Both the position numbers and the translations under genes were made by a program. A stretch of 39,379 nt of DNA, taken from the NCBI GenBank assembly GCA_964411535.1, contig CAYPLG010000003.1, positions 1 through 39,379 on the forward strand, given 5' to 3'. Below are positions 15,292-31,736 of the stretch, piece after piece. Source of the DNA: an uncultured Oscillospiraceae bacterium. Lineage in GTDB: Bacteria; Bacillota; Clostridia; Christensenellales; CAG-138. Numbering within the stretch: the first letter of the stretch is position 1; every line of letters starts with the position of its first letter. The notes under the pieces are model-generated. The model saw only the letters and a program-made list of their open reading frames with translations. It was not told the origin of the DNA and did no database searches.

Positions 15292-15362
15292 TGGATTCGC
15301 CTCCCAAAAACGGAATATGGCCTGCCGGGAACCTCGCCCGGTCAAAGCATATTGTTTTGCCT

Positions 15363-15547: not shown

Positions 15548-16264
15548 TTATTTCGCCTTGCCAAGATATGCGGCACGCACCGCTTCGTTGTTGAGCAGTT
15601 CGTTGCCCGTGCCGGAAAACGTGATTTCACCCGTCACCATCACATAGCCGCGATCCGCCGTTTTCAGCGCGGCGTTTGCGTTTTGCTCAATCAGCAGGAC
15701 CGTCACGCCGTCCGCATTGATGCGCTTGATAATCGAGAAAATGTCACGAACAACAAGCGGTGCAAGACCCAGCGAAGGCTCGTCCATCATGATCAGCTTC
15801 GGTTTGGCCATCAGCGCGCGCGCAACGGCAAGCATCTGCTGCTCTCCGCCGCTCAGCGTACCGGCAAGCTGCCAATGCCGCTCCTGCAAACGCGGGAACA
15901 TGCCGTAGACATACGCCATATCCTTCTCAATGCCGTCCTTGTCATTGCGCAGGTATGCGCCTATGCGCAGGTTTTCCAGCACCGTCAGGTTCGGAAACAC
16001 GCGGCGCCCCTCCGGCACCATGACGATGCCGGACTCGACAACCTTTTGCGCATCCGCCTTCGTAATGTCCGTACCGTTATACACGATCGAACCCGACGCC
16101 GCCGGCACGATACTGCTGATTGCGCGCACGGTTGTGGATTTGCCGGCGCCGTTTGCACCGATAAGCGTTACAATTTCGCCTTCCTCAACGGTGAACGAAA
16201 TGCCTTTGAGCGCCTCAATCCCACCATAATTGACCTTCAGGTCCTTGACTTCCAGCAGACTCAT
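15548..16264 (-). CDS. livF: branched-chain amino acid ABC transporter ATP-binding protein LivF
   Basis: Walker A GANGAGKST, signature LSGGEQQMLAVARAL, C-terminal AYLG. 4-nt overlap with livG. Confidence 0.9.
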   Translation of the reverse strand: MSLLEVKDLKVNYGGIEALKGISFTVEEGEIVTLIGANGAGKSTTVRAISSIVPAASGSIVYNGTDITKADAQKVVESGIVMVPEGRRVFPNLTVLENLRIGAYLRNDKDGIEKDMAYVYGMFPRLQERHWQLAGTLSGGEQQMLAVARALMAKPKLIMMDEPSLGLAPLVVRDIFSIIKRINADGVTVLLIEQNANAALKTADRGYVMVTGEITFSGTGNELLNNEAVRAAYLGKAK

Positions 16265-18230: not shown

Positions 18231-18240
18231 AACCCGCCTC

Positions 18241-19128
18241 CTAAACCTTGTCGATGGCCTTTTCGCCGAAAAGACCCGTCGGCTTGACCACCAGTATGAT
18301 AATCAACAGGGCAAAGGTAAATGCGTCGGAAAACGTCGTCCAGCCCAGCCCTTTAATGATGTTCTCGCATATGCCGATGATAAAAGCGCCGATCATCGCG
18401 CCCGGTATGCTGCCGATCCCACCGAATACCGCCGCAACAAACGCCTTAAGACCCGGCATAGCCCCGGAAATCGGCGTAACGGATGCGTAATTCGTAAAAT
18501 ACAGAAGGCTTCCGACGGCAGCAAGCAGCGAACCGATCACAAACGTTACGGAAATAACGGTATTGATCTTAATCCCCATAAGACGGCTCGTTTCAAAATC
18601 CTTGGAAACAGCCCGCATCGCCATGCCGATCTTCGTATGCTTGATAAGCAGCGTAAGCAAAACGACGAGCACTATGGTCAAAACCGGCGTAACCAGCGTG
18701 ACCATTTTCGTCGTCGCATCCCATATGGTAACCGTTCTGCTCAAAAACGGAATTTGCGGATAAATCTTTGCAAGGCCCCCCGTAAAATACAGCGCCGCGT
18801 TCTGCAACAGATAGGACACGCCGATAGCGCTGATCATGACCGACATGCGGGGCGCTTCCCTGAGCGGCTTATACGCCGCACGCTCAATTATAAAACCAAG
18901 CACGCACGTCAGCAAAATCACCAGCGGAATCGAGATTGCCATCGGAAGCGATGCGGAAAGATAGACCATGATCAGGCCGGCGCACATAAACACATCGCCA
19001 TGCGCAAAGTTGATCAGGCGCAGAATGCCGTAGACCATCGTATAGCCTATCGCAATCAGCGCATACTGTCCGCCCACGGATATGCCCGCAAGAATGTAGG
19101 ACAGATTTGCGTGTAAGAATTCGATCAT
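18241..19128 (-). CDS. livH: branched-chain amino acid ABC transporter permease LivH
   Basis: ATG 19128 (MIEFLHANLSYIL...) is preceded by GGAGGAACA. GGQYALIAIGYTMVYGILRLINFAHG is the family signature. The track's extension to 19458 overlaps livJ and is Arg-rich nonsense. Confidence 0.9.
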   Translation of the reverse strand: MIEFLHANLSYILAGISVGGQYALIAIGYTMVYGILRLINFAHGDVFMCAGLIMVYLSASLPMAISIPLVILLTCVLGFIIERAAYKPLREAPRMSVMISAIGVSYLLQNAALYFTGGLAKIYPQIPFLSRTVTIWDATTKMVTLVTPVLTIVLVVLLTLLIKHTKIGMAMRAVSKDFETSRLMGIKINTVISVTFVIGSLLAAVGSLLYFTNYASVTPISGAMPGLKAFVAAVFGGIGSIPGAMIGAFIIGICENIIKGLGWTTFSDAFTFALLIIILVVKPTGLFGEKAIDKV

Positions 19129-19159
19129 GTTGTTCCTCCGTGGAAACTTCATATGCAAC

Positions 19160-19186
19160 GGGCGGATGGCAGTAACCCATCCGCCC
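19160..19186 (-). promoter_or_regulatory. intercistronic stem-loop between the binding-protein and permease genes
   Basis: GGGCGGATGG-7 nt-CCATCCGCCC, a 10-bp GC-rich stem. No T-tract follows on the minus strand. Confidence 0.6.
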
Positions 19187-19243
19187 GCAAAAGACCGTAT
19201 TGCGCCGCGCAGAGCAGGCAACCCCGCGCAGGCAGCCCGTTTC

Positions 19244-20413
19244 TTAGTTGATGGTAACGGAGGGCAGCGCGTCCCACGTACCGGTTTCGGTGTTCGCATG
19301 CTTGACGAACGCGGTATTGCGGATCGCATCGCCCATCTCGTTAAGCGCGATCGGGCCGGAAACACCGTTGTAAGTCGTGCCGCCGAGCACCTCCAGCACC
19401 TTCGCCGCATCGGCCGTGCCAGCCTTCTTGATGGCTTCGAGCGCAAAGAAGTACGCATCGTAACCCATGGCGCTCACAGCCGCGACGGTATCGTCGCCGC
19501 CGTTCTCGGAAAGCAGCTGGTTATCCGCCGCAACCCATGCTTTGAAACCGCTGTCGAAGTCCGCATCCGCACCCTCCGGATAGAAGGTCGTAACGGTAAC
19601 GTTGATATCCTTGCCAAGCGCCGCCTGGAGGATCACGTTGCTGTCCCATGTATCACCGGCAAGCAGCGGCGCCTTATAGCCCTGCGCGTTGCACTGGTCG
19701 ATAATCAGCTGCGCAGCTTCCGTGGATACGGGGCTGAAGAACACCTCGCAGCCGCCGTTCTTTGCGTTGGCAACATAGGACGTGAAGTCGGAGTTGCCAT
19801 CCGGGAAGGTCTCCTCAACGCATTCGCCGCCAAGCGCCGTAAACGCCTCGACAAAGAACTTCACCAGGTTGCCGGAATAATCGTCGCCAAGCTTCGACAG
19901 GCAGTACGCCTTCTTAACGCCCAAGTCGTTAAACGCATAGTTGGCGAGTACCGTGCCCTGGAACGGATCCAGGAAGCAGATGCGGAAGTAGTAATTGTTG
20001 CCCTCGGTAACCTGCGGGTTCGTGCAGGTCACGCCAATTACGGGAATATTGGCCGCCTCAAAGGTCGGGCCGCCCGCGATCGACACGCCGGAACCATAGG
20101 AGCCAAGCGCAACGGATACGCCCGCGTTAACAAGCGTGGACGCCGCGGAAGCCGCCTTATCGTTGCTGGACTCGTTGTCTACGATAACAAGCTCTACGTT
20201 GTAGGTCTTGCCGCCGACCTCGACAGTGGGCTGTACGGAGTTCGCGTACTTGATGCCAAGCGTTTCCTGCTTGCCGCCCGCGCCGTTGTCGCCAGACGCC
20301 GGTTCGAAGACGCCAATCTTAATCGTGTCGCCGTTATCGGATTTCGCTCCGCAGCCGACGCACAGCGCCATCACCATGACCGCAACCAACACAATTGCAA
20401 TCGCCTTTTTCAT
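19244..20413 (-). CDS. livJ: Leu/Ile/Val-type ABC substrate-binding lipoprotein
   Basis: ATG 20413 lies after GGGAGGAAAAA. Lipobox LCVGC-G. Periplasmic-binding type-I fold features. First gene of the liv operon. Confidence 0.8.
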   Translation of the reverse strand: MKKAIAIVLVAVMVMALCVGCGAKSDNGDTIKIGVFEPASGDNGAGGKQETLGIKYANSVQPTVEVGGKTYNVELVIVDNESSNDKAASAASTLVNAGVSVALGSYGSGVSIAGGPTFEAANIPVIGVTCTNPQVTEGNNYYFRICFLDPFQGTVLANYAFNDLGVKKAYCLSKLGDDYSGNLVKFFVEAFTALGGECVEETFPDGNSDFTSYVANAKNGGCEVFFSPVSTEAAQLIIDQCNAQGYKAPLLAGDTWDSNVILQAALGKDINVTVTTFYPEGADADFDSGFKAWVAADNQLLSENGGDDTVAAVSAMGYDAYFFALEAIKKAGTADAAKVLEVLGGTTYNGVSGPIALNEMGDAIRNTAFVKHANTETGTWDALPSVTIN

Positions 20414-20499
20414 GTGATTTTTCCTCCCAATTAACAATGTTTGCTATCCCATAGCATTCATAATAATATAACATATACTTTTCACATGGACAATATAAA

Positions 20500-21512: not shown

Positions 21513-22070
21513 TTACTTCACGCGGCCGGGAACACTCTGCGCGCCCTGTATGAGCTTGCTGACCTCGATAATGCTCCATATGGTCAGGCAGCCTTCCACA
21601 ACCAACGCAACGCCGCCAATAATCGTCGCCGTAATCACCGCCTTAAACGGGTTGAACAGCAGCAGAATGCCAAGCGCCAGCATCGTCGCCGCGCAGATAA
21701 GCACCGGCGCCCAATGCCCCCCTCCAATTCTTCGGATATCGAGCGCTGTTTGCATGCGCAGTATGCTGTCCACGATCAGCGTAACGCCGATCACTACGCC
21801 GAACACCGCCACGACGGCGTCCGCTTTAAACAGAAGCAGCAATCCCGCAAGAATGCACGCGATACCGACGGCGACGCCAAATTGCATCTGCAACGGCAGT
21901 TCAACAATGAAATACGCCATAATCCGGTATACGCCGAACAACACCAGCAACGCGCCAAGCGTGTAGCATATGGCGTTCCGTGCGGTTTCCGGCCAGATGA
22001 TAAGCACCGCACCAAGAATAACATAGAGTATTGCCAGAATGATCATCGTCGTTTTAAAGTTTTTTTGCAT
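21513..22070 (-). CDS. DUF308/HdeD-family membrane protein
   Basis: Six hydrophobic helices and N-terminal ILGAVLIIWPE typical of DUF308. ATG 22070 follows GGAGGAGG. Confidence 0.75.
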   Translation of the reverse strand: MQKNFKTTMIILAILYVILGAVLIIWPETARNAICYTLGALLVLFGVYRIMAYFIVELPLQMQFGVAVGIACILAGLLLLFKADAVVAVFGVVIGVTLIVDSILRMQTALDIRRIGGGHWAPVLICAATMLALGILLLFNPFKAVITATIIGGVALVVEGCLTIWSIIEVSKLIQGAQSVPGRVK

Positions 22071-22111
22071 GGGTTGCCTCCTCCTTATGTTCGTATCGTA
22101 TAGCAACAAGA

Positions 22112-23065
22112 TTATGCATCGTCGCCGCTATTTTCAAAATTGATTCGTTCCTCCACAATTACAAGCGGCCGGTGCATTACGCGCGTGTTGATGCTCATAA
22201 TGTATTCGCCAAGAAAGCCGATGAAAAACAGGATTACGGAGCTGAACACAAACAGCCCGATCACCATCGGCGCCATGCCGACCGTAAATTCGTACCACTT
22301 GCACAGCTTGAGAATCAAATAGACGACCGCTACCACAATGCTTACCGCCGCAAGCGCGAATCCGGTAATCGTTGCAATGCGCAGCCCTACCTTGGTATAG
22401 CTTGTCACGGAAAGCATCGCCGCGTCATAAAGCGTGTAAAAGTTATTGTGCGTTTTGCCCGCGCGCCGCTTCTGCTGCTCGTACGGCACGTCGCAGCGCT
22501 TATAGCCCAGCTCCGCAACAATGCCGCGTAAAAACGGCGTGGGGTCGTCCAGCGTCTTGAGAATATCGATGAACTCGCGATCATACAGACCGAACCCTGT
22601 AAAATGCTCTATTTGCTCAACGCTCGACATCCTTTTGATAATTTTGTAATACAGAGTCCGCAGCGCACGAAAGAACGGATTCTCCCGGCTGGTGGTCTTG
22701 ATGCCGGAAACGATTTTATATCCCTCCTCCCACCGTGCAACAAACGTAGGAATCAGCTCCACGGGGTCCTGGAAGTCGCAGCACAACGTTACGGTACAGT
22801 CGCCCGTCGTTTGGCACATACCAAAGTACGGCGAATTAAACTGCCCAAAGTTTTTGGCGTTCAATATCGCCTTGATCTTCGGGTTCTTTGCGCAGATAAG
22901 CCGGAGCAAATCGCGCGTGCCGTCATCGGAGCAGTTGTCAATAAAGACAAGCTCGTAATCATAATGCGCAAGCTGCTGTGTCATCACAGAAACAATCGCT
23001 TCGCTCATGGGCACAACGTTCTCCGCCTCATTATAGCACGGAATCAATATGCTGATTTTCTTCAA
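22112..23065 (-). CDS. GT2 polyprenyl-phosphate glycosyltransferase (GtrB/CsbB-like)
   Basis: ILIPCYNE, FIDNCSDDGT and a DxD-type region, plus two C-terminal TM helices. TTG start 10 nt after AAGGAGG, with a TTGA overlap on the upstream stop. Confidence 0.85.
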   Translation of the reverse strand: MKKISILIPCYNEAENVVPMSEAIVSVMTQQLAHYDYELVFIDNCSDDGTRDLLRLICAKNPKIKAILNAKNFGQFNSPYFGMCQTTGDCTVTLCCDFQDPVELIPTFVARWEEGYKIVSGIKTTSRENPFFRALRTLYYKIIKRMSSVEQIEHFTGFGLYDREFIDILKTLDDPTPFLRGIVAELGYKRCDVPYEQQKRRAGKTHNNFYTLYDAAMLSVTSYTKVGLRIATITGFALAAVSIVVAVVYLILKLCKWYEFTVGMAPMVIGLFVFSSVILFFIGFLGEYIMSINTRVMHRPLVIVEERINFENSGDDA

Positions 23066-24864
23066 AGGCCTTCGACCTCCTTATTCCTTCTGTATTCCTC
23101 CGGCGGGAGGAACGGATACATGTCGTCTATGGGCGGGGATACAATTTTCCCATCCGGCAAAACCTTGCTGGACAGCTTCGGCGCAAAGAATTGCCGTTCG
23201 TCCAGCATCACTTCGCAAATAACCGGTCCGTCAGCCGAAAGAACCGTTCGCACCCCTTCCGCCGCGCGGTCGATATCGTCGATGCGCACATAGGGAATAC
23301 CGTATGCATACGCAATCTTTTCCATATCGGGAAAGCTTAAGCCGTTCCCGTCGCACACGCCGACAAGCGGCGGTTTGAAAAGGTTCGTTTGCGTTTGCCT
23401 TATCGAATGATACCCGTTGTTATTTAGATAGAACAGCTTCAGGTTCAAACGGTTGTACACGACGGTTTGCAACTCCTGCAAATTCATCTGAAAGCTTCCG
23501 TCGCCGTCAAGGCAGATGACGCGCTTCCCCTTCGTCGCCACGCATGCGCCGATCGCGGCCGGAAAACCGTAGCCCATCGCCGCGCAGCCGGAGTTTGTAA
23601 AGAGCCGCTGCCCGCGCCGCAGCCTCGCAGCCTGAAAGGACACCACGCATGCGCTGCCGTTGCCCGTTATGATGATCTCGTTCTCCTGCAATTCGTCAAA
23701 TAGCGTCTTCATAAACGCGTATGGGTTCATCGGCGATTTCGTTTCGTAATACTCCGGCAGTACGGCGGGGTATCGAAGGTTGATATCCCGGCACCAGGCA
23801 AGCCAGTTCGCATGCGCAGGGTTCCTCTCGTACCCGGAATCCGCGATTGCGCGCATTACGTCCGAAACGCATGCCCACACGGGCAGGTCGGGATGAATGG
23901 TCGGTTTGCATAGCTCGTTACGGTCAATATCTACAATGATCTTATATGCATTCTTTGCAAAGTCGCGATAGTTATAGCTAATCTGCCGGATATTCAAGCG
24001 GCAGCCGAGCACCAGCAGACAATCGCTGTTCTCCACGATAAAGTTGCCGCCGCGCGTGCCGATTGTGCCGGGCCTGCCGCAGTACAGCGGATGATCGTCG
24101 TACAAATCGTCATGCGCGTTCCATGCCGTAACCACCGGGATTCCGAGCTTGTCGATACAGTTTAAGAATGCGTCATGCCCGCCGGAAAGACGCACACCGC
24201 TACCCGCAAAAACCACCGGCCGTTTGGCCATACGAATCCGGTCGAGGATAACCGGCGTCAGCGACGCGTCGTATACGGGTTCCTCGTTCGCCGCGTCTTC
24301 GGCGGGATCGTAGCCTTCCAGCGTGTCGGGCGTAATGCGCGCGGCCTGCACGTCCAGCGGGATATCCAGCCAAACGGGACCGCCGCGGCCATGCAAAGCA
24401 AGGTACAGCGCCTTTTCCAGATGGTAGCGGATTTCTGTCGGTTCCGTCACCATAACGGCATACTTCGTCATAGGACGTACAGACGCAACAATGTTATACT
24501 CCTGATCGCCCAGCTGCCGAAGCGGCACGTCGCTCGCCCAGGTCGTCGTCTCCCGCTTGACCTGTCCGGATATGACAAACATCGGTATGGAGTCGAGCCA
24601 GCCGCCAAGAACGCCGGTAATCGCGTTCGTGCCGCCGGGGCCGGAGGTTACGCACACCGCCGCAAGCCTGTTGGTCAGGCGCGTATAGGCCTCCGCCGCG
24701 ATCGCGCACGCCTGCTCATGGTGGTGAAACGTACATTTGAGGCCCGCCTTATGGCCGAAAGCGTCGTCAAGATGCATCGCGCCGCCGCCGGTAAGCATAA
24801 ACATATCGGTAACGCCGTGACTCACCAAAAAATCTGCAATATAGTCCGCCAATCGTATCTGCAT
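23062..24864 (-). CDS. thiamine-diphosphate enzyme, acetolactate-synthase-like three-domain type
   Basis: N-terminal HGVTDMFMLTGGGAMHL...HEQA, and C-terminal ThDP motif GDGSFQMNLQELQT...NNNGY. Start set at ATG 24864 (MQIRLADY...), 6 nt after AGGAG. The track's ATG 24882 is an alternative. Confidence 0.85.
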   Translation of the reverse strand: MQIRLADYIADFLVSHGVTDMFMLTGGGAMHLDDAFGHKAGLKCTFHHHEQACAIAAEAYTRLTNRLAAVCVTSGPGGTNAITGVLGGWLDSIPMFVISGQVKRETTTWASDVPLRQLGDQEYNIVASVRPMTKYAVMVTEPTEIRYHLEKALYLALHGRGGPVWLDIPLDVQAARITPDTLEGYDPAEDAANEEPVYDASLTPVILDRIRMAKRPVVFAGSGVRLSGGHDAFLNCIDKLGIPVVTAWNAHDDLYDDHPLYCGRPGTIGTRGGNFIVENSDCLLVLGCRLNIRQISYNYRDFAKNAYKIIVDIDRNELCKPTIHPDLPVWACVSDVMRAIADSGYERNPAHANWLAWCRDINLRYPAVLPEYYETKSPMNPYAFMKTLFDELQENEIIITGNGSACVVSFQAARLRRGQRLFTNSGCAAMGYGFPAAIGACVATKGKRVICLDGDGSFQMNLQELQTVVYNRLNLKLFYLNNNGYHSIRQTQTNLFKPPLVGVCDGNGLSFPDMEKIAYAYGIPYVRIDDIDRAAEGVRTVLSADGPVICEVMLDERQFFAPKLSSKVLPDGKIVSPPIDDMYPFLPPEEYRRNKEVEGL

Positions 24865-24991
24865 CTGGTTCTCCTGTAGCATGTATTGCGAAATCCCTAT
24901 TCGCCCAGCGGCCTTGCGCCAAGTCGCGAAAGGTATGCGTATGCGTCGGCAAGTTCTCCGCGTGTAACATCGTGCACAAGCGTAAGCCTGG

Positions 24992-25204
24992 CGCCGTTAC
25001 AAACGCAACCGGAAGCGCATCCTTCGTTTCCGTTCAAGTACTTTCGTACATATCCGTTCAAATAATCCGCCTTGTCCTTTGCAAAGCCATACTCTCCATA
25101 TCGGTCTTATAATAGTTCATGTCGCTCGCCCGGTGCCCGCCAAAACCGGCGAGGGCAACGCTATGCACGCCCGCGCCGCGAATCGCCTTTAACAGCATGA
25201 CAAG
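24992..25204 (-). pseudogene. decayed duplicate of the 3' end of the aldolase/DUF115 gene
   Basis: Aligns by eye to 25897-26106 with about 11 substitutions plus +1 and +2 nt indels. Has no start codon and overlaps the last codons of the HAD gene. Confidence 0.8.
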
Positions 25205-25869
25205 TATTCTAATACTTCCGCCGCGTTCGCGCAAGGATATCCGCCCAGTGCGAGTACCTCTTCGCTGCGTGCAAATCCATAGCCATAAGTAACGCCAATA
25301 AAGGCAATCCCTGCGGCAGCAGCTCCCTCCGCGTCACTCGCGGTATCGCCAACCATGACCGCACGTTCCGCAGGAACAGCTGCCTCCGCAAGACATAGGC
25401 GTATAATATCGCGTTTTTGCATCTTACCTGCAAAATCCGACCCATGCCAAATCTTTACATAGCGATCAAGCCCAAAGTGAGAAAGCAACGTTCCCACATA
25501 GTCCTCGCGCTTATAGGTTGCCACAGCGATACACACACCGCAAGCACAGAGCGCAGCAAGCATTTCGTAAACACCTGGATATAGCGTTGCGTGAAATAGA
25601 TCTACTTGTTTGTAGCGCGCGCGAAACATTGCAGCCATGTCTGCTGCCGTCATCTCATCCACGTTGTAATAATGACGAAAGGAATTCTGAATCGGTGGGC
25701 CAATAAAAGTCCGAAATGCGGCGTCCGTGACAGGTGGCAGGCCAAAAGCGTTCGTCGTATACTGTACTGCGCTGTACATTCCTTGTGCGGGATCAAGCAA
25801 CGTGCCGTCGATATCAAATATCGCTAGACGGCTGTCCGTGTTGAGTATGCTGTGCGCTTTCTCTTCCAT
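25189..25869 (-). CDS. HAD-superfamily hydrolase (phosphoglycolate-phosphatase-like)
   Basis: Motif I FDIDGTLLD, motif III/IV VGDTASDAEGA. 6-nt gap after the upstream gene. Confidence 0.85.
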   Translation of the reverse strand: MEEKAHSILNTDSRLAIFDIDGTLLDPAQGMYSAVQYTTNAFGLPPVTDAAFRTFIGPPIQNSFRHYYNVDEMTAADMAAMFRARYKQVDLFHATLYPGVYEMLAALCACGVCIAVATYKREDYVGTLLSHFGLDRYVKIWHGSDFAGKMQKRDIIRLCLAEAAVPAERAVMVGDTASDAEGAAAAGIAFIGVTYGYGFARSEEVLALGGYPCANAAEVLEYLSCC

Positions 25870-25875
25870 AACAGC

Positions 25876-27483
25876 CTATTCCCCCTCATATTCGGACGCC
25901 GTTACAAACGTAACCGGAAGCGCATCCTTCGTTTCGTGCAAGTACTTCCGTACATATCCGTTCAGATAATCCGCCTTGTCCTTTGCAAAGCCATACTCCA
26001 TATTGGTCTTATAATAGTTCATATCGCTCGCCCGGTACCCGTCAAAACCCGCGAGGGCAACGCTATGCACACCCGCGCCGCGAAGCGCCTTTAACAGCAT
26101 GACTAGCGAGTTGTCGGGAATCTCCGTTTTAGGATCGATCAGCGCACTGTAATTGAGCACATACGGAAAATCCCCCTGTGCGCGCGTTACGTTGGAGGTT
26201 GCTACAATCGCAATGGTATCCTCCACCTTGGCAAGGCGGGAAGCCATCTGCGCATACCGCTTCGCATTCGTGATAAACAGCCACTTGACCGTTTCACAGT
26301 AAGCCCGCGGCAGAAAATTGATGGAGAATACAACCGGGCGGCGCTGCCGTATGTACGCCTGCACATCCGCCTGCTTATGCGCAATAGACGGCCCCGGCCC
26401 CAGCACCAGCACCTCGCGTCCTTGCAGCTTCTCAAACAATGCCGCCCGCGCATCCGCATCGTCGCACTCGTTCTTTTGAAAATCCAGATAGAGCGCTTCA
26501 ATCCGCTTTTGGTTGTACAGCAATTTTTCGTCGCCCACCAGCTGCGAAAGGATCTCCTTAATGGACTTCATCGAAAGCGTTCGCTTTTCCATCAGATAGG
26601 ACACATAGTTCGGATGGCACTTGTTGCTCGCCGCTACATAGTAAAAGAAGTTGTAGCCCCACGGGGTTACGCGGTAAATGTCGAGGATATTCGTCTCGAT
26701 GGCTTCGAGCAGCTGGCTTACATCGTACGATTTTCCGCAATGCTCGTTCATATACATGGAGATGAGCTCAATCGGCGCGTTACCTGCGCTCTTGCCCATG
26801 CCGTACAGCGAGCCGTCCACAACGATGTCGCGCTGCGTATCCGCATGGAGCATGCTGATGCTGTTCGCATAACCCATCTGAAAATTGTTGTGCGCATGAT
26901 AGCCCAGAGCAATCTCCGGCAACAAATGCGCGTCCGCAACCTTGAAAATATGCAGCAGATTGCTTTGATGCAGCAGGCCGTACGTATCCACCATGGACAT
27001 GGCAAACGGGCACACGCTGTTGACAAGGCCGATGAGTTCCAGCAGTTCCGGGTCGGAGTAGCTGGTAATCGATACGGCTTGCGCAAAAACCCGGTAACCA
27101 AGCTTCTTCACCTCCGCGCAAAAAGCAAGCGCCTCGTGCATCAGGTGCTTTTTGAATATCACGCGTATGCCGTCGAGCACGGTATTCTCGCAAGGCTCTA
27201 TGTTTGCAATCGGACACGTGCCATAGTCGATCATGCCGACGACAATCGCGTCGCCTTTGTGAATGCCGCCGTAGATGCGCGTCGCGCTCTTTGTATCCGG
27301 CATAATGCTGCGGTTTTCGTCAAAGGGTCTGCGCGCATCCAGAAATCCGACTTCGATTATGTCCACGCCTGCGCCGGCCAACCGCTCAAACACGCTGGTC
27401 AGCGTATCGCGCCCGAATTCCCAGTCGTTGATGTAACCGCCGTCGCGCAGTGTGCAATCCAGCAAGCGGAGCTTCCTCGTCAT
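25876..27483 (-). CDS. fusion protein: HMGL-like (DRE-TIM) aldolase domain plus DUF115/MptE-like domain
   Basis: N-terminal DCTLRDGG and YHAHNN metal-site motifs. C-terminal LVLGPGPSI and VALAGFDGY, characteristic of DUF115 (Maf/MptE-like). ATG 27483 follows GGGGGAGG, with an ATGA overlap on the gtrA stop. Confidence 0.75.
   Translation of the reverse strand: MTRKLRLLDCTLRDGGYINDWEFGRDTLTSVFERLAGAGVDIIEVGFLDARRPFDENRSIMPDTKSATRIYGGIHKGDAIVVGMIDYGTCPIANIEPCENTVLDGIRVIFKKHLMHEALAFCAEVKKLGYRVFAQAVSITSYSDPELLELIGLVNSVCPFAMSMVDTYGLLHQSNLLHIFKVADAHLLPEIALGYHAHNNFQMGYANSISMLHADTQRDIVVDGSLYGMGKSAGNAPIELISMYMNEHCGKSYDVSQLLEAIETNILDIYRVTPWGYNFFYYVAASNKCHPNYVSYLMEKRTLSMKSIKEILSQLVGDEKLLYNQKRIEALYLDFQKNECDDADARAALFEKLQGREVLVLGPGPSIAHKQADVQAYIRQRRPVVFSINFLPRAYCETVKWLFITNAKRYAQMASRLAKVEDTIAIVATSNVTRAQGDFPYVLNYSALIDPKTEIPDNSLVMLLKALRGAGVHSVALAGFDGYRASDMNYYKTNMEYGFAKDKADYLNGYVRKYLHETKDALPVTFVTASEYEGE
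25897..26106 (-). repeat. intact copy of the ~210-bp direct repeat flanking the HAD gene
   Basis: See 24992-25204. This copy is in frame within the aldolase/DUF115 CDS. Confidence 0.8.
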
Positions 27484-27992
27484 TTTTCCGCCGCCTCCCC
27501 CGCCGTTGTCTCCTCCGCCTCGGAAGGCGATTTGCGAAACGCCCAAAACTTATTGACAAGGAAATTCAGGGGAACCGTTATGCAAAGGTTGATCAACGGC
27601 GCAATATTCTCCGATATATGGAGCTTATCCACCCATAGCCACAGCAGCACAGCGCCAAGCAGATAGCTCGTCAGTCCGTACCCGGCTACGGTTCGCGCAA
27701 AGGTTTTCAGATGCTCGAAAAACGTCCGCCGTCTGCCCATTTTGAACACATAGCGGCTGTTCCAGAAATAGGAATTCACAACGCCGACAACAAAACCGAG
27801 AAAATTGGCAAGCTGGTGATGCAAGTGGAACACGTTCACGCATACATAATATACGCCCAGGCTGATCAGCGTATTGGACACGCCTACAATCCCGAACTTA
27901 ATAAACTGCATAATCGTGCTTTTGAGGCCTTCCGACCGTATGGTCTCCTTTATATTGGATAGCTGAAAGCCCGGCTTTTTTTGCATTTCCAT
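27480..27992 (-). CDS. GtrA-family membrane protein
   Basis: FIKFGIVGVSNTLISLGVYY signature, four helices. First gene of the glycan operon. Confidence 0.85.
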   Translation of the reverse strand: MEMQKKPGFQLSNIKETIRSEGLKSTIMQFIKFGIVGVSNTLISLGVYYVCVNVFHLHHQLANFLGFVVGVVNSYFWNSRYVFKMGRRRTFFEHLKTFARTVAGYGLTSYLLGAVLLWLWVDKLHISENIAPLINLCITVPLNFLVNKFWAFRKSPSEAEETTAGEAAEK

Positions 27993-28079
27993 CGGCGTAT
28001 GCCACTTTCCCGGCTGCGCGAAATGTATATACGCATACCGCTACTACTACATTGTAGCATAGTTTGATGAAAAGCAAAA

Positions 28080-28105
28080 CCCGTCAGTCGTAATACTCGA
28101 ACACC
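28080..28105. repeat. left copy of 26-bp perfect direct repeat (orphan gene-end fragment)
   Basis: CCCGTCAGTCGTAATACTCGAACACC, identical to 31711-31736. Confidence 0.95.
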
Positions 28106-28167
28106 GCTAGTTAGCCCTTCTTTATAGACGACCACGTTTTCTCACGCGAGCTAAGACTTTTGTTATA

Positions 28168-29553
28168 TTACAGCTTTTTCATTCGATATAGTAACCGTTT
28201 ACTGTCTGAAACCAGTTGCTTATCTGCAATTTCAAAAAACTTGCAAAAAGCATTTTCAAACCCAGTTTCCGAATAATTCGGAAATATATCGTCTCGCGTA
28301 GCAAGCAGCACCTGTACTTTCGAGTCTTCCTTCGGAACAAATTCTATAATCAGGTTGTCCGCAAGAGAGGATAGCCATTCTGCAATTTTCGGCAAGGGAA
28401 GATTATTTGATATTGCCAAATGATGAATAATTGCAAGCGCTAAAATGCAGTCTGGCTTCCCACGTTCCGCAATGCTCTTGCGTTCGCAATTTGCAAATCC
28501 AATAGCTGGGCTAGGATTAGTAAGATCAATGATCAACGGTAAGATATTAACGTTTTCTGACTTGACCAAAGAATAATTGCGTTCCGTCGCAAGCGGATCT
28601 ATGTCAAAAGCAACCGCCATCATCCCGTCTGTTGATGCTAGTTTTGTGTATACTCCATCGTTTGCGCCCAAGTCCCAAACCATCTTTGGTGCTATTTTTT
28701 TAATATATGCCCGTACAATAGCTTCCTTTGCGTCTGAAGCCACCTGCGAATAATTCGTGTGTGCATAGTAATCTGACCATTCTGTCTTTTCCTTGCGAAG
28801 TCGCAATGATTCAATCCCGCGGATAATGCTGTCAATCATTGCAATATGGTTGTTTTTCGAAAGATAAATTTGTTTCGTTCGGCTAACGCTTTTCCCGTCT
28901 TCTGCATGCCCCATAATTGCTTTTGCATGCCAATGTATATGCTGTTTTGCAAAAAAGCCGCCCTTTCCATGCAGCAATTTGGATGCCAATGGCAACGGAA
29001 TACCATCAATATAAAGTCTAAGAAGCTTGCTCATCTGCAAATCCAGGTTACACATCATCAACAACGGCGCAATAAAATGTCTGCAAAACTGTCCATATGC
29101 TATCCACGGCATGCCCTCTTGATATATATCAAATGATAGCGTATCTATTAATACAGGCTGTCCATGCAAAAACTGCACATTATACGCGCTTGCATCTTTC
29201 AATATCATTCCGTGTGCAAGCGCCTTTTTATGGCAGGAAAGAGTAAGCAATGCTGCATCCTTTAACATCCCAAAAGCCCACTCATAGGGATAGGAAATGA
29301 ATGGAATATTTGTTGGTTCAATTACCAAAAAGGCATCGTTTGTAATTCCCTCTTCTGTTGATACTTGATGACCAATCAGCATGCCTGCCTTTGTCAATTC
29401 AGCATATAAGCCGCCATCCATTAACTTGCAATACTGTTCCCTGTAGCAAGGATTTATTTGACGATATAGTCTTCCATTGCGTGTGAAAACCATTCCGGAA
29501 GGATCGCGAAACGAGCTAGCCTCAATCTGAGCGTTATCGTTCTTCCTTATCAT
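28168..29553 (-). CDS. two-domain protein: N-terminal kinase-like/unknown domain plus C-terminal class I SAM-dependent methyltransferase
   Basis: N-terminal FRDPSG...YPYEW...LKDASAYNVQF...IDTLSF. C-terminal SAM motif I VWDLGANDG and post-I AFDID. ATG 29553; the track's TTG 29583 is an alternative. Confidence 0.7.
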   Translation of the reverse strand: MIRKNDNAQIEASSFRDPSGMVFTRNGRLYRQINPCYREQYCKLMDGGLYAELTKAGMLIGHQVSTEEGITNDAFLVIEPTNIPFISYPYEWAFGMLKDAALLTLSCHKKALAHGMILKDASAYNVQFLHGQPVLIDTLSFDIYQEGMPWIAYGQFCRHFIAPLLMMCNLDLQMSKLLRLYIDGIPLPLASKLLHGKGGFFAKQHIHWHAKAIMGHAEDGKSVSRTKQIYLSKNNHIAMIDSIIRGIESLRLRKEKTEWSDYYAHTNYSQVASDAKEAIVRAYIKKIAPKMVWDLGANDGVYTKLASTDGMMAVAFDIDPLATERNYSLVKSENVNILPLIIDLTNPSPAIGFANCERKSIAERGKPDCILALAIIHHLAISNNLPLPKIAEWLSSLADNLIIEFVPKEDSKVQVLLATRDDIFPNYSETGFENAFCKFFEIADKQLVSDSKRLLYRMKKL

Positions 29554-29743
29554 TCTGCGTTTCTTGCACTCCTTCCTTCTCAAAATTGGACGTTATCTTC
29601 GTCTGACTCGTTTTTTTGCCTTTGCGGGAAACCCACCATGCTTTTACCCTTGCCTTGAAGGCAAAAAGCAACGCCCCGCAAGCCGCTATTCCTGCGATCA
29701 GGATCTGAATAATCATACTTCCAAAACCAGGATCCAAATACAT
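29534..29743 (-). CDS. small membrane protein (69 aa)
   Basis: ATG 29743 lies 7 nt after GGAGGAA. MYLDPGFGSMIIQILIAGIAACGALLFAF helix followed by a Lys-rich tail. 20-nt overlap with the downstream gene. Confidence 0.6.
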   Translation of the reverse strand: MYLDPGFGSMIIQILIAGIAACGALLFAFKARVKAWWVSRKGKKTSQTKITSNFEKEGVQETQNDKEER

Positions 29744-29836
29744 TATTTCATTCCTCCATTGTTCATTCATTCTTTGTTGCACATACTAGCAAAAAGCCTA
29801 TGTTCCTGCATGCACAAGATAACACTCGTAACGCTA

Positions 29837-31525
29837 TTAATCGTTTTCTACATAAGCATAGTTACCGGAACCTACAAATCGATTCACAAGGTACCTAGAC
29901 AAATTCAAAGGGGTACGCAATGCATTGTCTTCCTCTCCGTTCTTGTATGCATCCGGCACCCGTATTGCGCTTATTACGCTATTCCAAAGTTCTTGCGCCG
30001 GAGTATCATCGCCGAATGCCGCATTAAAATCCTCTTCCGTATTGTTGTGAAGTCCATGATCACCTTGTAAAATGATCACTGCATTCGGATCCTGTGTACA
30101 AATAGCATCAATCATTCCTAGCAGAACTTTGCTCGTATAAACATGATTTCCTAGGTAATTGCAAATTTCACGACTGTCCTTCGTACTGTCAATCACATTC
30201 CCTTCAGAATCATATGCAAAAGGATTATGCGCCATCTCAAACATCAAAACTGTAAGCTGTGGCGCAATATCTGTTTGTAGCGTCATGAAAAACTCTTTTG
30301 CAAAGTTTAGATCGCAGGTTAAAGAGCGTTCTGTCATCCGCAACTGTTGTAATTCCTCTTTAGATATGGAATAATTCACTTCACCAGCAAGCTGTTCGTG
30401 TTGAGTATCCTTATCCGCGCCGTGCAACATCTCAAAAATAATAAACGCAGGCTTTGCAAATGTTTCCAAAAAAGCTTCGTACTGTATTTGTTCCTTAATC
30501 TTCTGTACATCAGAAGCACCTCGACTGACTTGATTCGATGGCAAAGTACAGCTTTGCAAGTAAATCGAATCCGTTGTTCGGTTAATATAGTCACTGAACA
30601 AAAAGAAATCCGTTCCTTCCGGAAAAAACACCCCCGGATATGTGCAAACTATTTTTATCCGATAGCCTTTGAGCCGAAACGCTGTAAATAGATCAAGGTT
30701 CCTTCGTGCTTCAACTACGTTCTTGCTGGAACCTACCGCCGTACGATCTTTTTATGATTGGATTATTTCTTTCAATGTATCATCATAGTAATCTGGGCTC
30801 ATCATCGACGGAATTGCAACATACGTAATATGTAACGACTCCAGATATGCATTTTTGTTTAATGCGAATCCTCGTTCATTAAGTGCGGCATTAAATGCTG
30901 CTTGTTCATCGTGAAAATATTTATTGACCGTATCAAATCCAAGCATTCCGTCACAATGAATCCAATAAATATTTGGACTTTCCTGACGATTAACTTCAAA
31001 ATCCGTCCGATAATCAGCACTTGTAGCAATAGCGATTTTCTTCTGTTCAGTATTCCGAATAATAATACGAGCGCTATTCATACTAAGTAATGCAAGTATA
31101 ACCGTAAATAAAAACACTGCAACAACGTCATCGGCCGCTTCGTGTTTTCGTAAAACAATACCGATTACAATCGCAATAATTATGAAAATAGAAATTGATA
31201 TAGGCAATCCGTGTACTTCCCGATCAAGGAGGTCGCAAAATAAAGCTCTAAGTTCGTTATAAGAAAAAAATATGATCCAAAAAATAATACATATTGCAAT
31301 TGCCGACAAGAAACTTTGAAAAATTGCTCGTGCCGAATAATACAATATAATGGAAAATACCATTTCAAATACACAAATAAGTAAAATGTATCGAAATAAT
31401 ACTTGTTCTACGTTTTGGCTGTAATAATACGATGTAATTGCTACTGGAATTAATGCAGATGAAATAAAAAACATCCATTTGTATAATTCAGCAGACCTAC
31501 ATTTTTCCATAGTTCTCATTTTCAA
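29837..31525 (-). pseudogene. sulfatase/LTA-synthase-family membrane protein interrupted by one in-frame TAA
   Basis: ORFs 30752-31525 (five TM helices plus PNIYWIHCDGMLGF) and 29837-30631 (ILQGDHG sulfatase motif) are in the same frame. The 40 codons between them contain no further stop. The stop codon is at 30752-30754. Confidence 0.7.
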
Positions 31526-31662
31526 TTACTGCTATGCTTAATCATTTCTATAACAAGTTGGTTGAACAATCCTGCACTCTTTCCTTCCCATTCCAATTAC
31601 CATGCAATTTGATTGCATTAATTCTTGTACATTATAACAAAATAAACTGTTTTTGCAATAAC

Positions 31663-31708
31663 ATAGAACCATAATATGTCCTACAATAGAACCATAATAT
31701 GTTCTACA
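31663..31708. repeat. 23-bp tandem direct repeat x2
   Basis: ATAGAACCATAATATGTCCTACA / ATAGAACCATAATATGTTCTACA, with one mismatch, abutting the right 26-bp repeat. Confidence 0.9.
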
Positions 31709-31710
31709 AA

Positions 31711-31736
31711 CCCGTCAGTCGTAATACTCGAACACC
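31711..31736. repeat. right copy of 26-bp direct repeat (functional 3' end of the M15 gene)
   Basis: Covers 4 nt after the stop, the stop codon, and codons VFEYYD of the 31715-33070 CDS. Confidence 0.95.

Follow-up and report, generated by a model that had tools for sequence, protein, structure and literature searches.

A Gtr-type operon with a fused aldolase and a YerE-like ThDP enzyme, a probable route to a branched deoxysugar of the cell surface

Introduction

Among the branched deoxysugars, yersiniose A of Yersinia pseudotuberculosis is made by DdhA-D, YerE and YerF; YerE works with pyruvate, and no aldolase is required. For erwiniose (ErwI/ErwJ/ErwE/ErwF, Pectobacterium atrosepticum), caryophyllose (MMAR_2331/2332, Mycobacterium marinum) and gastriose (MygI/MyGE/MygF), Steitz et al. 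(2022) described an aldolase that feeds gamma-hydroxy-alpha-keto acids to a YerE-like enzyme (the pairs ErwI and ErwE, MMAR_2331 and MMAR_2332, MygI and MyGE), which ligates the keto acid onto CDP-4-keto-3,6-dideoxyglucose (PMC9306805). ErwE, the one case tested, refuses pyruvate and uses the preformed aldol product (PMC9306805). Three-component surface-decoration systems are known from Shigella and Salmonella phages (GtrA/GtrB/GtrX), from Bacillus and Listeria (CsbB/GtcA/YfhO) and from Streptococcus mutans (PgfS/PgfM), and ArnC/ArnT is a further example; what they load is a common UDP-sugar (Glc, GlcNAc or Ara4FN). In the synthesis of KDO, KDN and Neu5Ac, a ulosonate-phosphate synthase makes a phosphorylated 3-deoxy-2-ulosonic acid, which is then dephosphorylated by a HAD enzyme.

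The locus considered here lies in a stretch of 39,379 nucleotides from an uncultured Oscillospiraceae bacterium, a gut organism of Clostridia type; the whole stretch is called the window below. Its five genes (22112-27992), all on the minus strand, encode a GtrA-family protein, an aldolase fusion (AldX), a HAD phosphatase, a ThDP enzyme and a GT2 glycosyltransferase. With the erwiniose, caryophyllose and gastriose clusters the locus shares the pyruvate aldolase and the YerE-like ThDP carboligase, and its relatives also share the sugar ketoreductase and the genes for CDP-4-keto-3,6-dideoxyglucose. The remark in the original prediction that it knew of no characterised pathway with such a composition is not borne out, since this pairing is published for all three sugars (PMC9306805). 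The present locus nevertheless differs from these clusters: AldX represents a distinct DRE-TIM subfamily with a fused MptE/CstII-like domain and without an acylating dehydrogenase partner, an extra module (HAD, or DHQS-like protein plus SDR) is present, the enzyme to take the sugar would be a polyprenyl-phosphate transferase of GtrB type, not an ordinary glycosyltransferase of the cytoplasm, and the window itself lacks the reductase and CDP-sugar genes. The hosts of AldX-type loci, too, are different, being mostly Clostridia and Negativicutes.

The yersiniose A cluster has a ThDP enzyme of the same subclass, and the relatives of our locus share its CDP-glucose, 4,6-dehydratase and RfbH(E1) genes; here, in contrast, aldolase and ThDP enzyme are conserved together, so that a branch of more than two carbons is predicted. 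Like the three-component systems, the window contains a GtrA-family protein, a GT2 enzyme with C-terminal TM helices and a polytopic GT-C (GtrII-like in the window, GT87-like in relatives), but donor-tailoring enzymes are inserted between gtrA and gtrB, and the relatives imply a CDP-linked donor. With the KDO, KDN and Neu5Ac pathways the proposed two-step logic is shared by analogy only: a pyruvate-dependent DRE-TIM aldolase and a HAD-IA enzyme stand where those pathways have PEP-dependent synthases and HAD-IIIA enzymes, and the acid would undergo ThDP decarboxylation, not CMP activation.

Results

Searches for open reading frames and domains bore out the minus-strand coordinates of six genes, the operon and a GtrII-like gene (Table 1), together with their overlaps and a 6-nt gap. 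The gtrA stop and the AldX start overlap in ATGA, the gap of 6 nt separates AldX from the HAD gene, and the ThDP gene and the GT2 gene overlap in TTGA; the latter starts with TTG, 10 nt downstream of the Shine-Dalgarno sequence AAGGAGG. All five reading frames are intact, full length and joined by overlaps or short gaps. The gene order and overlaps of the operon as first described are correct, but the genes are not spaced tightly throughout: a non-coding stretch of 306 nt (24883-25188) between the HAD and ThDP genes had been overlooked. Domain and profile searches of the 39-kb window found no rfbF/G/H or other NDP-sugar genes and no YerF-like reductase; PEP mutase, cytidylyltransferase, LicD-type transferase, AHAS small subunit and ilv genes were likewise absent from the window.

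Table 1. Features of the operon and its surroundings
Feature	Position	Strand	Basis or remark
GtrB/ArnC/PgfS-like GT2 polyprenyl-phosphate glycosyltransferase, 317 aa	22112-23065	-	PF00535; two C-terminal TM helices
YerE-like ThDP-dependent carboligase, 606 aa	23062-24882	-	TPP_enzyme N, M and C domains all present
DHQS-like (AroB-related) 3'-end fossil, joined to the AldX fossil	24897-24992	-	translates ARLTLVHDVTRGELADAYAYLSRLGARPLGE, then stop
AldX-gene fossil, last ~65 codons, two frameshifts	24992-25188	-	93% identity over 197 nt to 25897-26090
HAD-IA phosphatase, 226 aa, phosphoglycolate-phosphatase-like	25189-25869	-	PF13419, E 6e-31
AldX (aldolase fusion)	25876-27483	-	PF00682 HMGL-like, residues 5-260, plus about 195 further residues
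AldX C-terminal domain, about 195 aa	25876-26463	-	MptE/DUF115-like and CstII-like Rossmann-type nucleotide-binding fold
AldX N-terminal part, residues 1 to about 340	26464-27483	-	DRE-TIM (HMGL-like) class II pyruvate-aldolase domain, then helical linker; PF00682, E 2e-22
GtrA-family small polytopic membrane protein, 170 aa, first operon gene	27480-27992	-	PF04138, E 1.5e-25; ATG start
Possible extended -10 promoter element TGCTACAAT	28051-28059	-	59 nt upstream of gtrA ATG; read by eye
Low-GC insertion, 3.6 kb, outside the system	28077-31736		perfect 29-bp direct repeat at both ends
GtrII-like polytopic GT-C, 528 aa, candidate final transferase	33562-35148	-	PF14264, E 3.5e-38

The Gtr-type frame of the locus was confirmed by domain searches, all three components being present. 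GtrA is presumed to be the flippase or accessory partner for a polyprenyl-phosphate sugar. The GT2 enzyme matches the NCBIfam models PgfS (1.2e-51) and ArnC (2.5e-34) over its full length, below their cut-offs, and has orthologues of 64-70% identity at the end of rfbFGH-containing operons (64-68% in L060, L026, L047 and L071). The GtrII-like gene belongs to a separate transcription unit, in which its start overlaps the stop of a GGDEF-EAL gene, and a YjbR gene on the plus strand separates it from an M15-like gene upstream of the operon. Its distance of 5570 nt to gtrA, earlier given simply as 5.6 kb, is mostly explained by the 3.6-kb insertion, which parts the operon from the M15-like gene and GtrII. 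The insertion has a GC content of 31-41%, against 50-57% in the flanking genes, and its ends (28077-28105 and 31708-31736) are identical, where chance would give 0 matches. It begins 84 nt upstream of the gtrA ATG and leaves the putative gtrA promoter region in place. We only infer that TGCTACAAT could be a promoter element of gtrA; a consensus promoter scan did not list it.

The N-terminal part of AldX scores best in NCBIfam with 4-hydroxy-2-oxovalerate aldolase (82 bits, cut-off 229), and the top Foldseek and phmmer matches of its aldolase domain are 3dxi (the N-terminal domain of BVU_2661), followed by DmpG, HsaF and AmnG. AldX thus has the fold of the DmpG/BphI-type aldolases and keeps their metal and enolate residues (R17, D18, H200 and H202 of DmpG), whereas the catalytic histidine (H21 of DmpG) is replaced by Tyr17, a DmpF/BphJ partner is missing and a nucleotide-binding domain is added at the C-terminus. 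This domain carries the invariant family motifs GPG, NxxRY, ATSN, DNS and GFDGY. Its AF2 model (pLDDT 87.1) retrieved the archaeal HPPK MptE (8sd5, E 3e-5, prob 1.0), SteA (9hmz) and the GT42 sialyltransferase CstII (1ro8, prob 0.99, TM 0.53) in Foldseek, and a profile search of the PDB returned 8sd5 as a weak match (E 0.05) over the GPG motif. The fold resembles that of MptE/DUF115/Maf/CstII (prob 0.99-1.0), and the GPG(P)S of AldX sits at the GxGPS(L) position, but with identity of 13-15% and TM of only about 0.5 the identity of the ligand is not readable from the fold. The assignment of this half to DUF115 consequently holds at the level of fold, and of the weak profile match to the founder MptE; Pfam gave no match to the domain at E <= 10, PF01973 included. 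The fusion is invariant in the family, as the top 120 AldX homologues each cover about 99% of the query. One further fusion, SDR::AldX (P0059, 761 aa), was found, and an identical AldX protein is present on other metagenome contigs.

The suggestion of a YerE-type ThDP enzyme was strengthened. Of the relatives with a solved structure, the YerE-like JanthE comes first (8rph; E 3e-127, 428.7 bits, full length, residues 1-595 aligned), and orthologues with 70% identity, such as that of L060, occur in CDP-glucose/RfbH operons that include a sugar ketoreductase. Identity to the orthologue of L083 is 79%. PpYerE (5ahk, 249.7 bits) is barely above the AHAS enzymes (about 218-230 bits), so the placement leans mainly on JanthE and gene context. 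The enzyme falls under the cut-off of every AHAS equivalog in NCBIfam, including the AHAS large subunit, its top model by score (315 bits, cut-off 538).

Eighty loci, the best matches to the query, were analysed; the co-occurrence figures therefore describe close relatives only. In 75 loci from other species that encode the AldX fusion, the association of the fusion with a ThDP enzyme and GtrA/GtrB was recovered, and the arrangement is far from chance: AldX has as neighbours the ThDP enzyme in 62 of the 75 loci, a YerF-like SDR in 46, RfbG in 40, GT2 in 36, RfbH in 34, RfbF and HAD in 28 each and GtrA in 16. Where at least 6 kb was available on each side, the ThDP gene adjoins AldX in 42 of 45 loci. 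In four loci (L060, L026, L047 and L071) a co-directional operon runs RfbF-RfbG-RfbH-GtrA-AldX-HAD-ThDP-SDR-GT2-GT87-GT87, with RfbF, RfbG and RfbH each above the NCBIfam equivalog cut-off. In the closest relatives, L083, L084 and L086, which are independent, the minimal GtrA-AldX-module-ThDP-GT2 layout recurs, and rfbF/G/H, other NDP-sugar genes and a YerF-like reductase are likewise absent. The GtrII-like protein of the window shares 56% identity, along its whole length, with a counterpart in L083 encoded 2 kb downstream of the orthologous operon.

The HAD enzyme (100 bits with the NCBIfam model PGP_bact, under the cut-off of 180) is encoded between AldX and the ThDP gene in 28 of the 75 loci, and no locus has both it and the DHQS-like/SDR module (Fisher p = 5e-5). 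The two are alternating, interchangeable modules, both acting on phosphate esters. The 306-nt gap of the window holds two gene fossils, one of the 3' end of AldX (translation AIRGAGVHSVALAGFGGHRASDMNYYKTDME..) and one whose product, ARLTLVHDVTRGELADAYAYLSRLGARPLGE up to the stop, compares with the C-terminus of the DHQS-like protein of L086, AALTIVHDVTRAELSDAYAYLSAFAH, likewise ending in a stop; they indicate that the HAD cassette replaced a DHQS-like module.

Discussion

We consider it probable that the operon supplies the specific part of a three-component system (GtrA / GtrB-like GT2 / GT-C) for decorating a surface glycan, and that the sugar transferred is a C-acyl-branched deoxysugar of the yersiniose/erwiniose/caryophyllose type. 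In the proposed pathway, the aldolase domain of AldX would join pyruvate to an aldehyde, probably a phosphorylated aldose, yielding a 4-hydroxy-2-oxo acid (a 3-deoxy-2-ulosonic acid), and HAD would strip the phosphate from this product or from its aldehyde precursor; which of the two steps comes first, and which aldehyde is used, are guesses. Sister operons have a DHQS-like phospholyase and an SDR in place of HAD, which would give a deoxy variant. Homology and context establish the family of the ThDP enzyme, and its substrates are what we infer: it would decarboxylate the keto acid, and the resulting acyl carbanion would attack an NDP-4-keto-deoxyhexose at its C4 ketone. In relatives the acceptor would be CDP-4-keto-3,6-dideoxy-D-glucose from RfbF/G/H; the source of the keto-sugar in the present genome must lie outside the window, which lacks these genes. 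The reductase and NDP-sugar genes being absent also from L083, L084 and L086, the branch may stay a ketone. The GT2 enzyme would then load the branched sugar onto undecaprenyl phosphate, GtrA would aid its outward movement, and the GT-C, here the GtrII-like protein, would pass it to a cell-wall polymer or protein. As to the C-terminal domain of AldX, the model suggests nucleotide binding; it could be a kinase or pyrophosphokinase acting on the aldehyde or aldol product, or else could recognise a cytidine nucleotide.

The family of the ThDP enzyme, the published precedent, the conserved neighbourhood and the co-directional operons with orthologous genes, the conserved metal and enolate residues of AldX, the alternation of HAD with the DHQS-like/SDR module and the fossil of a swap between them, the SDR::AldX fusion and the 56% link of GtrII count for this proposal. 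Against it count the lack of NDP-sugar and reductase genes in the window and its closest relatives, the low score of PpYerE, the position of GtrII in a different transcription unit and the replacement of the catalytic histidine. Moreover, to our knowledge the characterised GtrB-like enzymes use UDP- or GDP-sugars, not CDP-sugars. Overall, the Gtr frame and the YerE-like enzyme of the original prediction stand, the pathway novelty and, at Pfam level, the assignment to DUF115 do not, and the keto-sugar and reductase genes are missing from the window; all findings are consistent with a branched donor, derived from a keto acid through a phosphorylated intermediate, as the product of the inserted enzymes.

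An unlikely alternative would let the aldolase act on the sugar itself, the CstII/MptE-like domain holding a cytidine nucleotide while the pyruvate enolate attacks the C4 ketone of the NDP-keto-sugar directly, or else an acetyl branch put there beforehand by the ThDP enzyme, which would then decarboxylate or further ligate the 2-oxo-acid chain; a branched sugar would still reach the Gtr-type system. The resemblance of the domain to CstII, which binds a CMP-sugar, besides MptE, and the invariance of the fusion would fit such an order, although a fold match at this TM and identity does not reveal the ligand. A C4 branch derived from pyruvate occurs in natural sugars, e.g. shewanellose. Steitz et al. 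named this order as an alternative to their own scheme, but the rejection of pyruvate by ErwE, a single tested case, argues against it (PMC9306805), as do the HAD and DHQS-like partners, which suggest small phosphorylated intermediates and not a nucleotide sugar.

We see little chance that the locus is decayed or incomplete, no longer giving a finished product now that the cassette has been swapped and foreign DNA has entered nearby. The two fossils, the foreign DNA close to gtrA and the failure to find rfbFGH and YerF-like genes in 39 kb point that way; however, the five reading frames are intact and coupled, the same rfb-less layout occurs in L083, L084 and L086, the identical AldX recurs on other contigs, and the putative promoter region of gtrA survived the insertion. 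Very improbable, too, is a non-sugar substituent (a polyol, a hydroxy-acid or acetoin-type head group, or a phosphonate-like group) made by the three enzymes and attached to a glycopolymer by a path separate from the GT2 donor sugar. HMGL-like enzymes and ThDP decarboxylases do occur in phosphonate and organic-acid pathways as well, and the window has no nucleotide-sugar gene; but neither has it a PEP mutase, cytidylyltransferase or LicD-type transferase, orthologues are embedded in CDP-glucose/RfbH/sugar-reductase operons, and the nearest relative of the ThDP enzyme is a ketone-accepting carboligase rather than a phosphonopyruvate or sulfopyruvate decarboxylase. An ordinary acetolactate or acetohydroxyacid synthase, placed in the operon incidentally, is effectively refuted, for although the top NCBIfam model is an AHAS one, all AHAS cut-offs failed, JanthE scores far higher, small subunit and ilv genes are absent from the window, and the ThDP gene adjoins AldX in 62 of 75 loci.

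For the branched-deoxysugar pathway that we favour, the chemistry would thus follow what is known from Pectobacterium and mycobacteria, and what is new would be the fused enzyme and the delivery route.

Results

Organization of the operon

All five open reading frames of the minus-strand operon (22112-27992) are intact and closely linked (see the table below). The gene content, the families and the GtrII-like gene named in the original prediction were confirmed by the reading frames and by Pfam and NCBIfam searches. The first gene encodes a GtrA-family membrane protein (GtrA_DPMS_TM, PF04138, E 1.5e-25), residues 5-260 of the aldolase fusion protein AldX are HMGL-like, and the third product matches HAD_2. 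The glycosyltransferase (GT2; Glycos_transf_2, PF00535) aligns over its full length to PgfS (1.2e-51) and ArnC (2.5e-34), in both cases below the equivalog cut-offs, and its translated C-terminus contains the two hydrophobic helices of a GtrB-like anchor. The GtrII-like protein (PF14264, E 3.5e-38) is encoded 5.6 kb from the operon, in a separate transcription unit. Thus, the proposed Gtr frame was largely right. As for the linkage of the genes, the overlaps and the short spacing between AldX and HAD were borne out, but a non-coding stretch between the HAD and ThDP genes had been passed over.

No Rfam family was matched anywhere in the window, and so no riboswitch was found 5' of gtrA or within the 306-nt gap. 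A scan for promoters and terminators between 21.4 and 28.4 kb gave counts at or under the shuffled expectation and was uninformative. Just past the GT2 gene begins one for a DUF308/HdeD-like membrane protein, which may share the transcript of the operon; it stands beside the operon in none of the related loci.

Features of the operon and of its surroundings in the window
Feature	Coordinates	Strand	Length	Remarks
gtrA-like	27480-27992	-	170 aa	first gene of the operon
AldX (aldolase fusion)	25876-27483	-	535 aa	ATGA overlap with gtrA
HAD	25189-25869	-	226 aa	6-nt gap after AldX
Gap with gene fossils	24883-25188		306 nt	two fossils, head to tail
ThDP enzyme	23062-24882	-	606 aa	306-nt gap after HAD
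GT2	22112-23065	-	317 aa	TTG start; TTGA overlap with ThDP gene; AAGGAGG upstream
DUF308/HdeD-like gene	21513-22109			starts 2 nt past GT2 stop
Insertion	28077-31736		3.6 kb	between gtrA and GtrII-like gene
Direct repeat	28077-28105 and 31708-31736		29 bp	perfect; bounds the insertion
Sulfatase/LtaS-like gene	30752-31525 and 29837-30631	-		split into two ORFs
Tandem unit	31663-31708		23 nt, twice	just within upstream insertion end
GtrII-like gene	33562-35148			PF14264
Membrane GGDEF-EAL gene	35145-37424			stop overlaps GtrII-like start by 4 nt (35145-35148)
PQQ-repeat gene pair	11221-15345		666 and 693 aa	adjacent paralogues
ABC transporter operon	15548-20437			branched-chain amino acids

Relatives and their gene neighbourhoods

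Homologues of AldX number in the thousands, and the best 120 are 56-85% identical to the query across about 99% of its length. When one genome per GTDB species was scanned, at least 563 stretches, each from a species representative, were found to encode an AldX relative. The carriers are mostly Lachnospiraceae, Oscillospiraceae and other Clostridia, together with Negativicutes, some Spirochaetes and Bacteroidia; they also include Selenomonas, Anaerovibrio, one Sphaerochaeta, one Lentisphaeria and one Bacteroidia MAG. Open reading frames were called in the best 80 of the 563 loci and compared with the proteins of the window and with representative neighbours; the AldX frame was recovered in 75 of them, and neighbours were counted within a radius of 10 kb.

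This co-occurrence check revealed co-conservation around the aldolase fusion. The ThDP gene was found near AldX in 62/75 loci; where the flanks reached 6 kb or more on either side (45 loci), it was found in 42. The GtrB-like GT2 was found in 36/75 and GtrA in 16/75. The HAD gene was present in 28/75, and the AroB-related (DHQS-like) gene in 19/75. An SDR of about 308 aa from the NAD-dependent epimerase/dehydratase family accompanied AldX in 46/75 loci, CDP-glucose 4,6-dehydratase (RfbG) in 40/75, RfbH in 34/75 and glucose-1-phosphate cytidylyltransferase (RfbF) in 28/75. The three Rfb assignments exceed the NCBIfam equivalog cut-offs (RfbF, TIGR02623, 395 bits; RfbG, TIGR02622, 452 bits; RfbH, PRK15407, 731 bits). 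The SDR was also considered as a 4,6-dehydratase, and this was rejected on its motif, SQAEYG and not the TDE of RmlB-type dehydratases; it is more likely, on sequence grounds, a ketoreductase.

The fullest arrangement occurs in four related loci (L060, L026, L047 and L071), where a single co-directional operon reads rfbF-rfbG-rfbH-gtrA-AldX-HAD-ThDP-SDR-GT2 and continues into two genes for GT87-like polytopic proteins, of which one was detected in L026. Identity to the window proteins is 70% for the L060 ThDP orthologue and 64-68% for the GT2s encoded in such operons. This context of NDP-4-keto-deoxysugar and reductase genes was seen for ThDP orthologues at 58-71% identity (the same four loci and others). 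RfbF, RfbG and RfbH, the E1 dehydrase, are encoded at 6143-9393 of L060 and in similar operons. No obvious gene for E3, the CDP-6-deoxy-delta-3,4-glucoseen reductase, was found among the reading frames of the L060-like operons, a result that bears on where these anaerobes obtain the electrons for C3 deoxygenation.

Neither the 39 kb of the window nor its nearest relatives, L083, L084 and L086, contain rfbF/G/H, other nucleotide-sugar genes or a YerF-like SDR. Since the three relatives share this absence, the minimal gtrA-AldX-module-ThDP-GT2 operon is stable in the subclade, and the predicted keto-sugar acceptor of the window's organism must derive from genes elsewhere in the genome.

The aldolase domain and the fused C-terminal domain of AldX

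Both Foldseek and phmmer placed the aldolase domain in the structural neighbourhood of DmpG/BphI. Its best NCBIfam model, PRK08195, gave 82 bits against a cut-off of 229, and TIGR03217 gave 74 bits against 286; judged by these scores, the AldX aldolase is a subfamily separate from DmpG/BphI. Residues R13, D14, H196 and H198 align with R17, D18, H200 and H202 of DmpG, and the catalytic H21 of DmpG aligns with Tyr17. No acylating aldehyde dehydrogenase partner of the DmpF/BphJ type is encoded in the window. The closest solved relative is 3dxi, whose description names it the N-terminal domain of BVU_2661, so that the latter protein must bear a further domain as well. A literature search on '3DXI' returned ultrasound papers only. 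In one AldX homologue (P0059, 761 aa), a short-chain dehydrogenase domain is fused N-terminally to the aldolase, and this single case hints, as a Rosetta-stone sign, that the SDR and AldX share a pathway.

The C-terminal part of AldX had been labelled DUF115. As a Pfam family this was wrong, as PF01973 was matched neither by whole AldX nor by the isolated C-terminal 249 aa, with only noise at E <= 10; in spirit it was right. When the domain (about 195 residues) was modelled separately (pLDDT 87), its best Foldseek match was the founder of DUF115, the M. jannaschii HPPK MptE (8sd5, E 3e-5, probability 1.0), and the CMP-sialic-acid-binding sialyltransferase CstII followed at probability 0.99 and a TM score of 0.53. 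Other matches were the cell-division protein SteA and a mammalian sialyltransferase. The TM scores to MptE-, Maf- and CstII-fold matches are only about 0.45-0.53. A profile of the domain searched against the PDB recovered the same MptE chain (E 0.05), across a GPG motif. From the model, the domain is a divergent nucleotide-binding fold of the MptE/DUF115/GT42-like kind, and its ligand may be either a cytidine nucleotide or ATP, the latter in keeping with a kinase or pyrophosphokinase. An exhaustive profile search with it gave 1344 representatives at E <= 0.001, and all 150 matches listed were AldX or its fragments.

The ThDP enzyme

The ThDP enzyme has the three-domain build of the decarboxylase superfamily, with matches to all three TPP_enzyme domains (PF02776, PF00205 and PF02775), and its translation carries the cofactor motif GDGSFQMN...NNNGY. 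Compared with all PDB sequences, its top match was 8rph (E 3e-127, 428.7 bits, residues 1-595 against 1-594), which is JanthE, a YerE-like aldehyde-ketone carboligase of Janthinobacterium (PMC12188165). Acetolactate synthases (AHAS) reached 218-230 bits and Gcl 137 bits. The second match, 5ahk (249.7 bits), is presumably the structure of PpYerE, reportedly solved by Hampel et al. in 2018. That a structure of PpYerE exists is stated in a review (PMC12247030). The NCBIfam models for AHAS, Gcl and Xsc all remained far under their cut-offs, AHAS with 315 bits against 538. By these search scores, in which JanthE and PpYerE stand for the characterised YerE-like enzymes, the enzyme is nearer to that group than to AHAS, Gcl, Xsc or other clades.

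A biosynthetic acetolactate synthase for branched-chain amino acids was considered as an alternative. It was dropped both on these scores and on gene context, as the window encodes neither an AHAS small subunit nor ilv genes; the outcome that would have refuted the original prediction, a true acetolactate synthase beside ilv genes, is therefore not what was found. Similarity clustering of ThDP enzymes left HAD-type and DHQS-type operons intermixed in the main cluster, so that the module type is not readable from the ThDP sequence.

Exchange of the variable module

The variable module beside the AldX and ThDP genes occurs in three states: none, a HAD-IA phosphatase, or a FabG-like SDR with the AroB-related gene, which scores above the cut-off for a putative 'sugar phosphate phospholyase' (TIGR04425, 433 bits). 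In roughly one quarter of the related operons (L006, L083 at 11611-13328, L086 and others), the SDR and DHQS-like pair stands in for HAD. HAD and the DHQS-like module were found together in 0/75 loci, where about 7 would be expected (Fisher p = 5e-5). Both HAD and the DHQS-like protein are taken to act on phosphate esters, and so the aldehyde or aldol product of the AldX pathway would carry a phosphate. On this view HAD would leave a hydroxy terminus, and the DHQS-like and SDR pair a deoxy terminus.

Two gene fossils lie head to tail in the gap between the HAD and ThDP genes. Over the first 197 nt past the HAD stop, identity to the final ~65 codons of live AldX is 93%, with two frameshifting insertions. 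The next ~95 nt, which correspond to the final ~30 codons of a gene of the DHQS-like type, translate to ARLTLVHDVTRGELADAYAYLS... and match the C-terminus of the L086 DHQS-like protein, AALTIVHDVTRAELSDAYAYLSAFAH up to its stop. L083 (AldX 70% and ThDP 79% identical to the window) and L086 (AldX 78%) keep the order gtrA-AldX-SDR-DHQS-like-ThDP; in L084 (AldX 85%) AldX and HAD are followed by a partial start of another gene. Taken together, both fossils and the layout of L083 and L086 indicate that a HAD cassette replaced the SDR and DHQS-like module in the lineage of the window. Module exchange thus occurs in nature, and the fossils are direct evidence of it.

Insertion upstream of the operon and the GtrII-like gene

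A second rearrangement scar accounts for most of the distance between gtrA and the GtrII-like gene. The 3.6-kb insertion has a GC content of 31-41%, against 50-57% for the flanking genes, and the repeat at its bounds copies sequence from an M15-like peptidase gene, namely its 3' end. With the insertion subtracted, the M15-like gene ends 84 nt 5' of the gtrA start. No integrase or transposase is visible within it; the minus strand carries the split sulfatase/LtaS-like gene and encodes a protein of 471 aa whose only match, to a methyltransferase, is weak. The tandem unit near its upstream end consists of ATAGAACCATAATATGTCCTACA and a 96% copy, and the second copy has one base in common with the direct repeat.

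A plus-strand YjbR gene stands between the M15-like and GtrII-like genes. Across its full length the GtrII-like protein shares 56% identity with its counterpart in L083, encoded 2 kb downstream of that operon, which supports it as a candidate for the cognate final transferase. It is probably co-transcribed with the overlapping GGDEF-EAL gene, an arrangement that hints at surface glycosylation and c-di-GMP signalling in one operon. Elsewhere in the window, the PQQ-repeat gene pair, encoding large proteins with C-terminal PQQ/beta-propeller repeats, lies downstream of the ABC transporter operon.

Discussion

A unifying scheme for acyl-branched sugars, proposed and partly demonstrated by Steitz et al. 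in 2022, provides the closest known chemistry (PMC9306805). A pyruvate aldolase (the BphI-like ErwI of Pectobacterium, MMAR_2331 of M. marinum or MygI of M. gastri) makes a gamma-hydroxy-alpha-keto acid, which a YerE-like enzyme (ErwE, MMAR_2332 or MyGE) decarboxylates and ligates to CDP-4-keto-3,6-dideoxy-D-glucose, and a YerF-like reductase completes erwiniose, caryophyllose or gastriose (PMC9306805). ErwE accepts 4-hydroxy-2-oxo acids and refuses pyruvate (PMC9306805). More than 200 predicted YerE-like clusters are mentioned in a later review (PMC12247030). Our literature searches for the aldolase, ThDP protein and GtrA annotations in combination returned no paper, and those on yersiniose of Eubacterium saburreum nothing usable. 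An in-silico survey of over 200 YerE-like clusters was reportedly made by Krug et al. in 2024.

The AldX-ThDP-SDR-RfbFGH operons of the relatives fit this scheme gene for gene. In the window AldX and the ThDP enzyme share an operon, as the scheme has it, but the NAD(P)H reductase and the CDP-4-keto-3,6-dideoxyglucose genes, common in the relatives, are absent from its 39 kb. The best-supported reading is that the operon would encode the aldolase/ThDP core of an acyl-branched-sugar system. The ideas of YerE-like branching and of a keto-acid-derived donor in the original prediction have therefore held up largely, while its novelty was overstated, because the pairing of an aldolase with a YerE-like enzyme is already part of the published scheme (PMC9306805). 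A phosphonate pathway was dropped, as no PEP mutase is encoded in the window.

Several features nevertheless set the AldX system apart from the published clusters. The latter lack delivery by a GtrB-like polyprenyl-phosphate GT2, GtrA and a GT-C protein, which would be the route of export here; the putative GT-C is the GtrII-like protein in the window, whereas relatives have GT87-like proteins. The AldX aldolase forms its own subfamily with a fused nucleotide-binding-fold domain, and the variable module is a further addition. The system is thus best filed as an acyl-branched-sugar pathway variant coupled to a three-component glycosylation system. Gene content, families, co-conservation, the fold of the additional domain and both rearrangement scars were established by the analysis, whereas the substrates of AldX and HAD, the acceptor sugar of the window's organism, the function of the MptE-like domain, the use of a CDP-sugar by the GT2 and the acceptor on the surface are predictions.

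One bolder explanation would join these features, and we consider it unlikely as a whole. AldX would be a bifunctional enzyme of a new kind, in which the MptE/CstII-like domain either phosphorylates the aldehyde or aldol product, or binds a CDP-sugar so that the aldolase makes the C-C bond directly on the nucleotide sugar. More than 500 species, mostly gut Clostridia, carry the operon family, which would then make a so far undetected class of higher-carbon branched sugars, passed from the CDP-sugar to undecaprenyl phosphate and on to the Gram-positive surface. The module swap would vary the side chain.

To our knowledge, C-acyl-branched sugars have so far been described from only a few glycolipids of Gram-negative bacteria and mycobacteria, whose antigenicity and immune signalling they influence. 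The family described here predicts similar or longer branched sugars on the surfaces of many gut commensals. It offers clonable candidates for a new fusion of an aldolase with a nucleotide-binding fold and for a possible CDP-sugar-using GtrB-type enzyme, as well as new YerE-like carboligases, which are sought as biocatalysts for tertiary alcohols. Finally, surface glycans could be varied by simple genetic means, as the exchange of HAD and DHQS-like cassettes, fossilised in the window, suggests.
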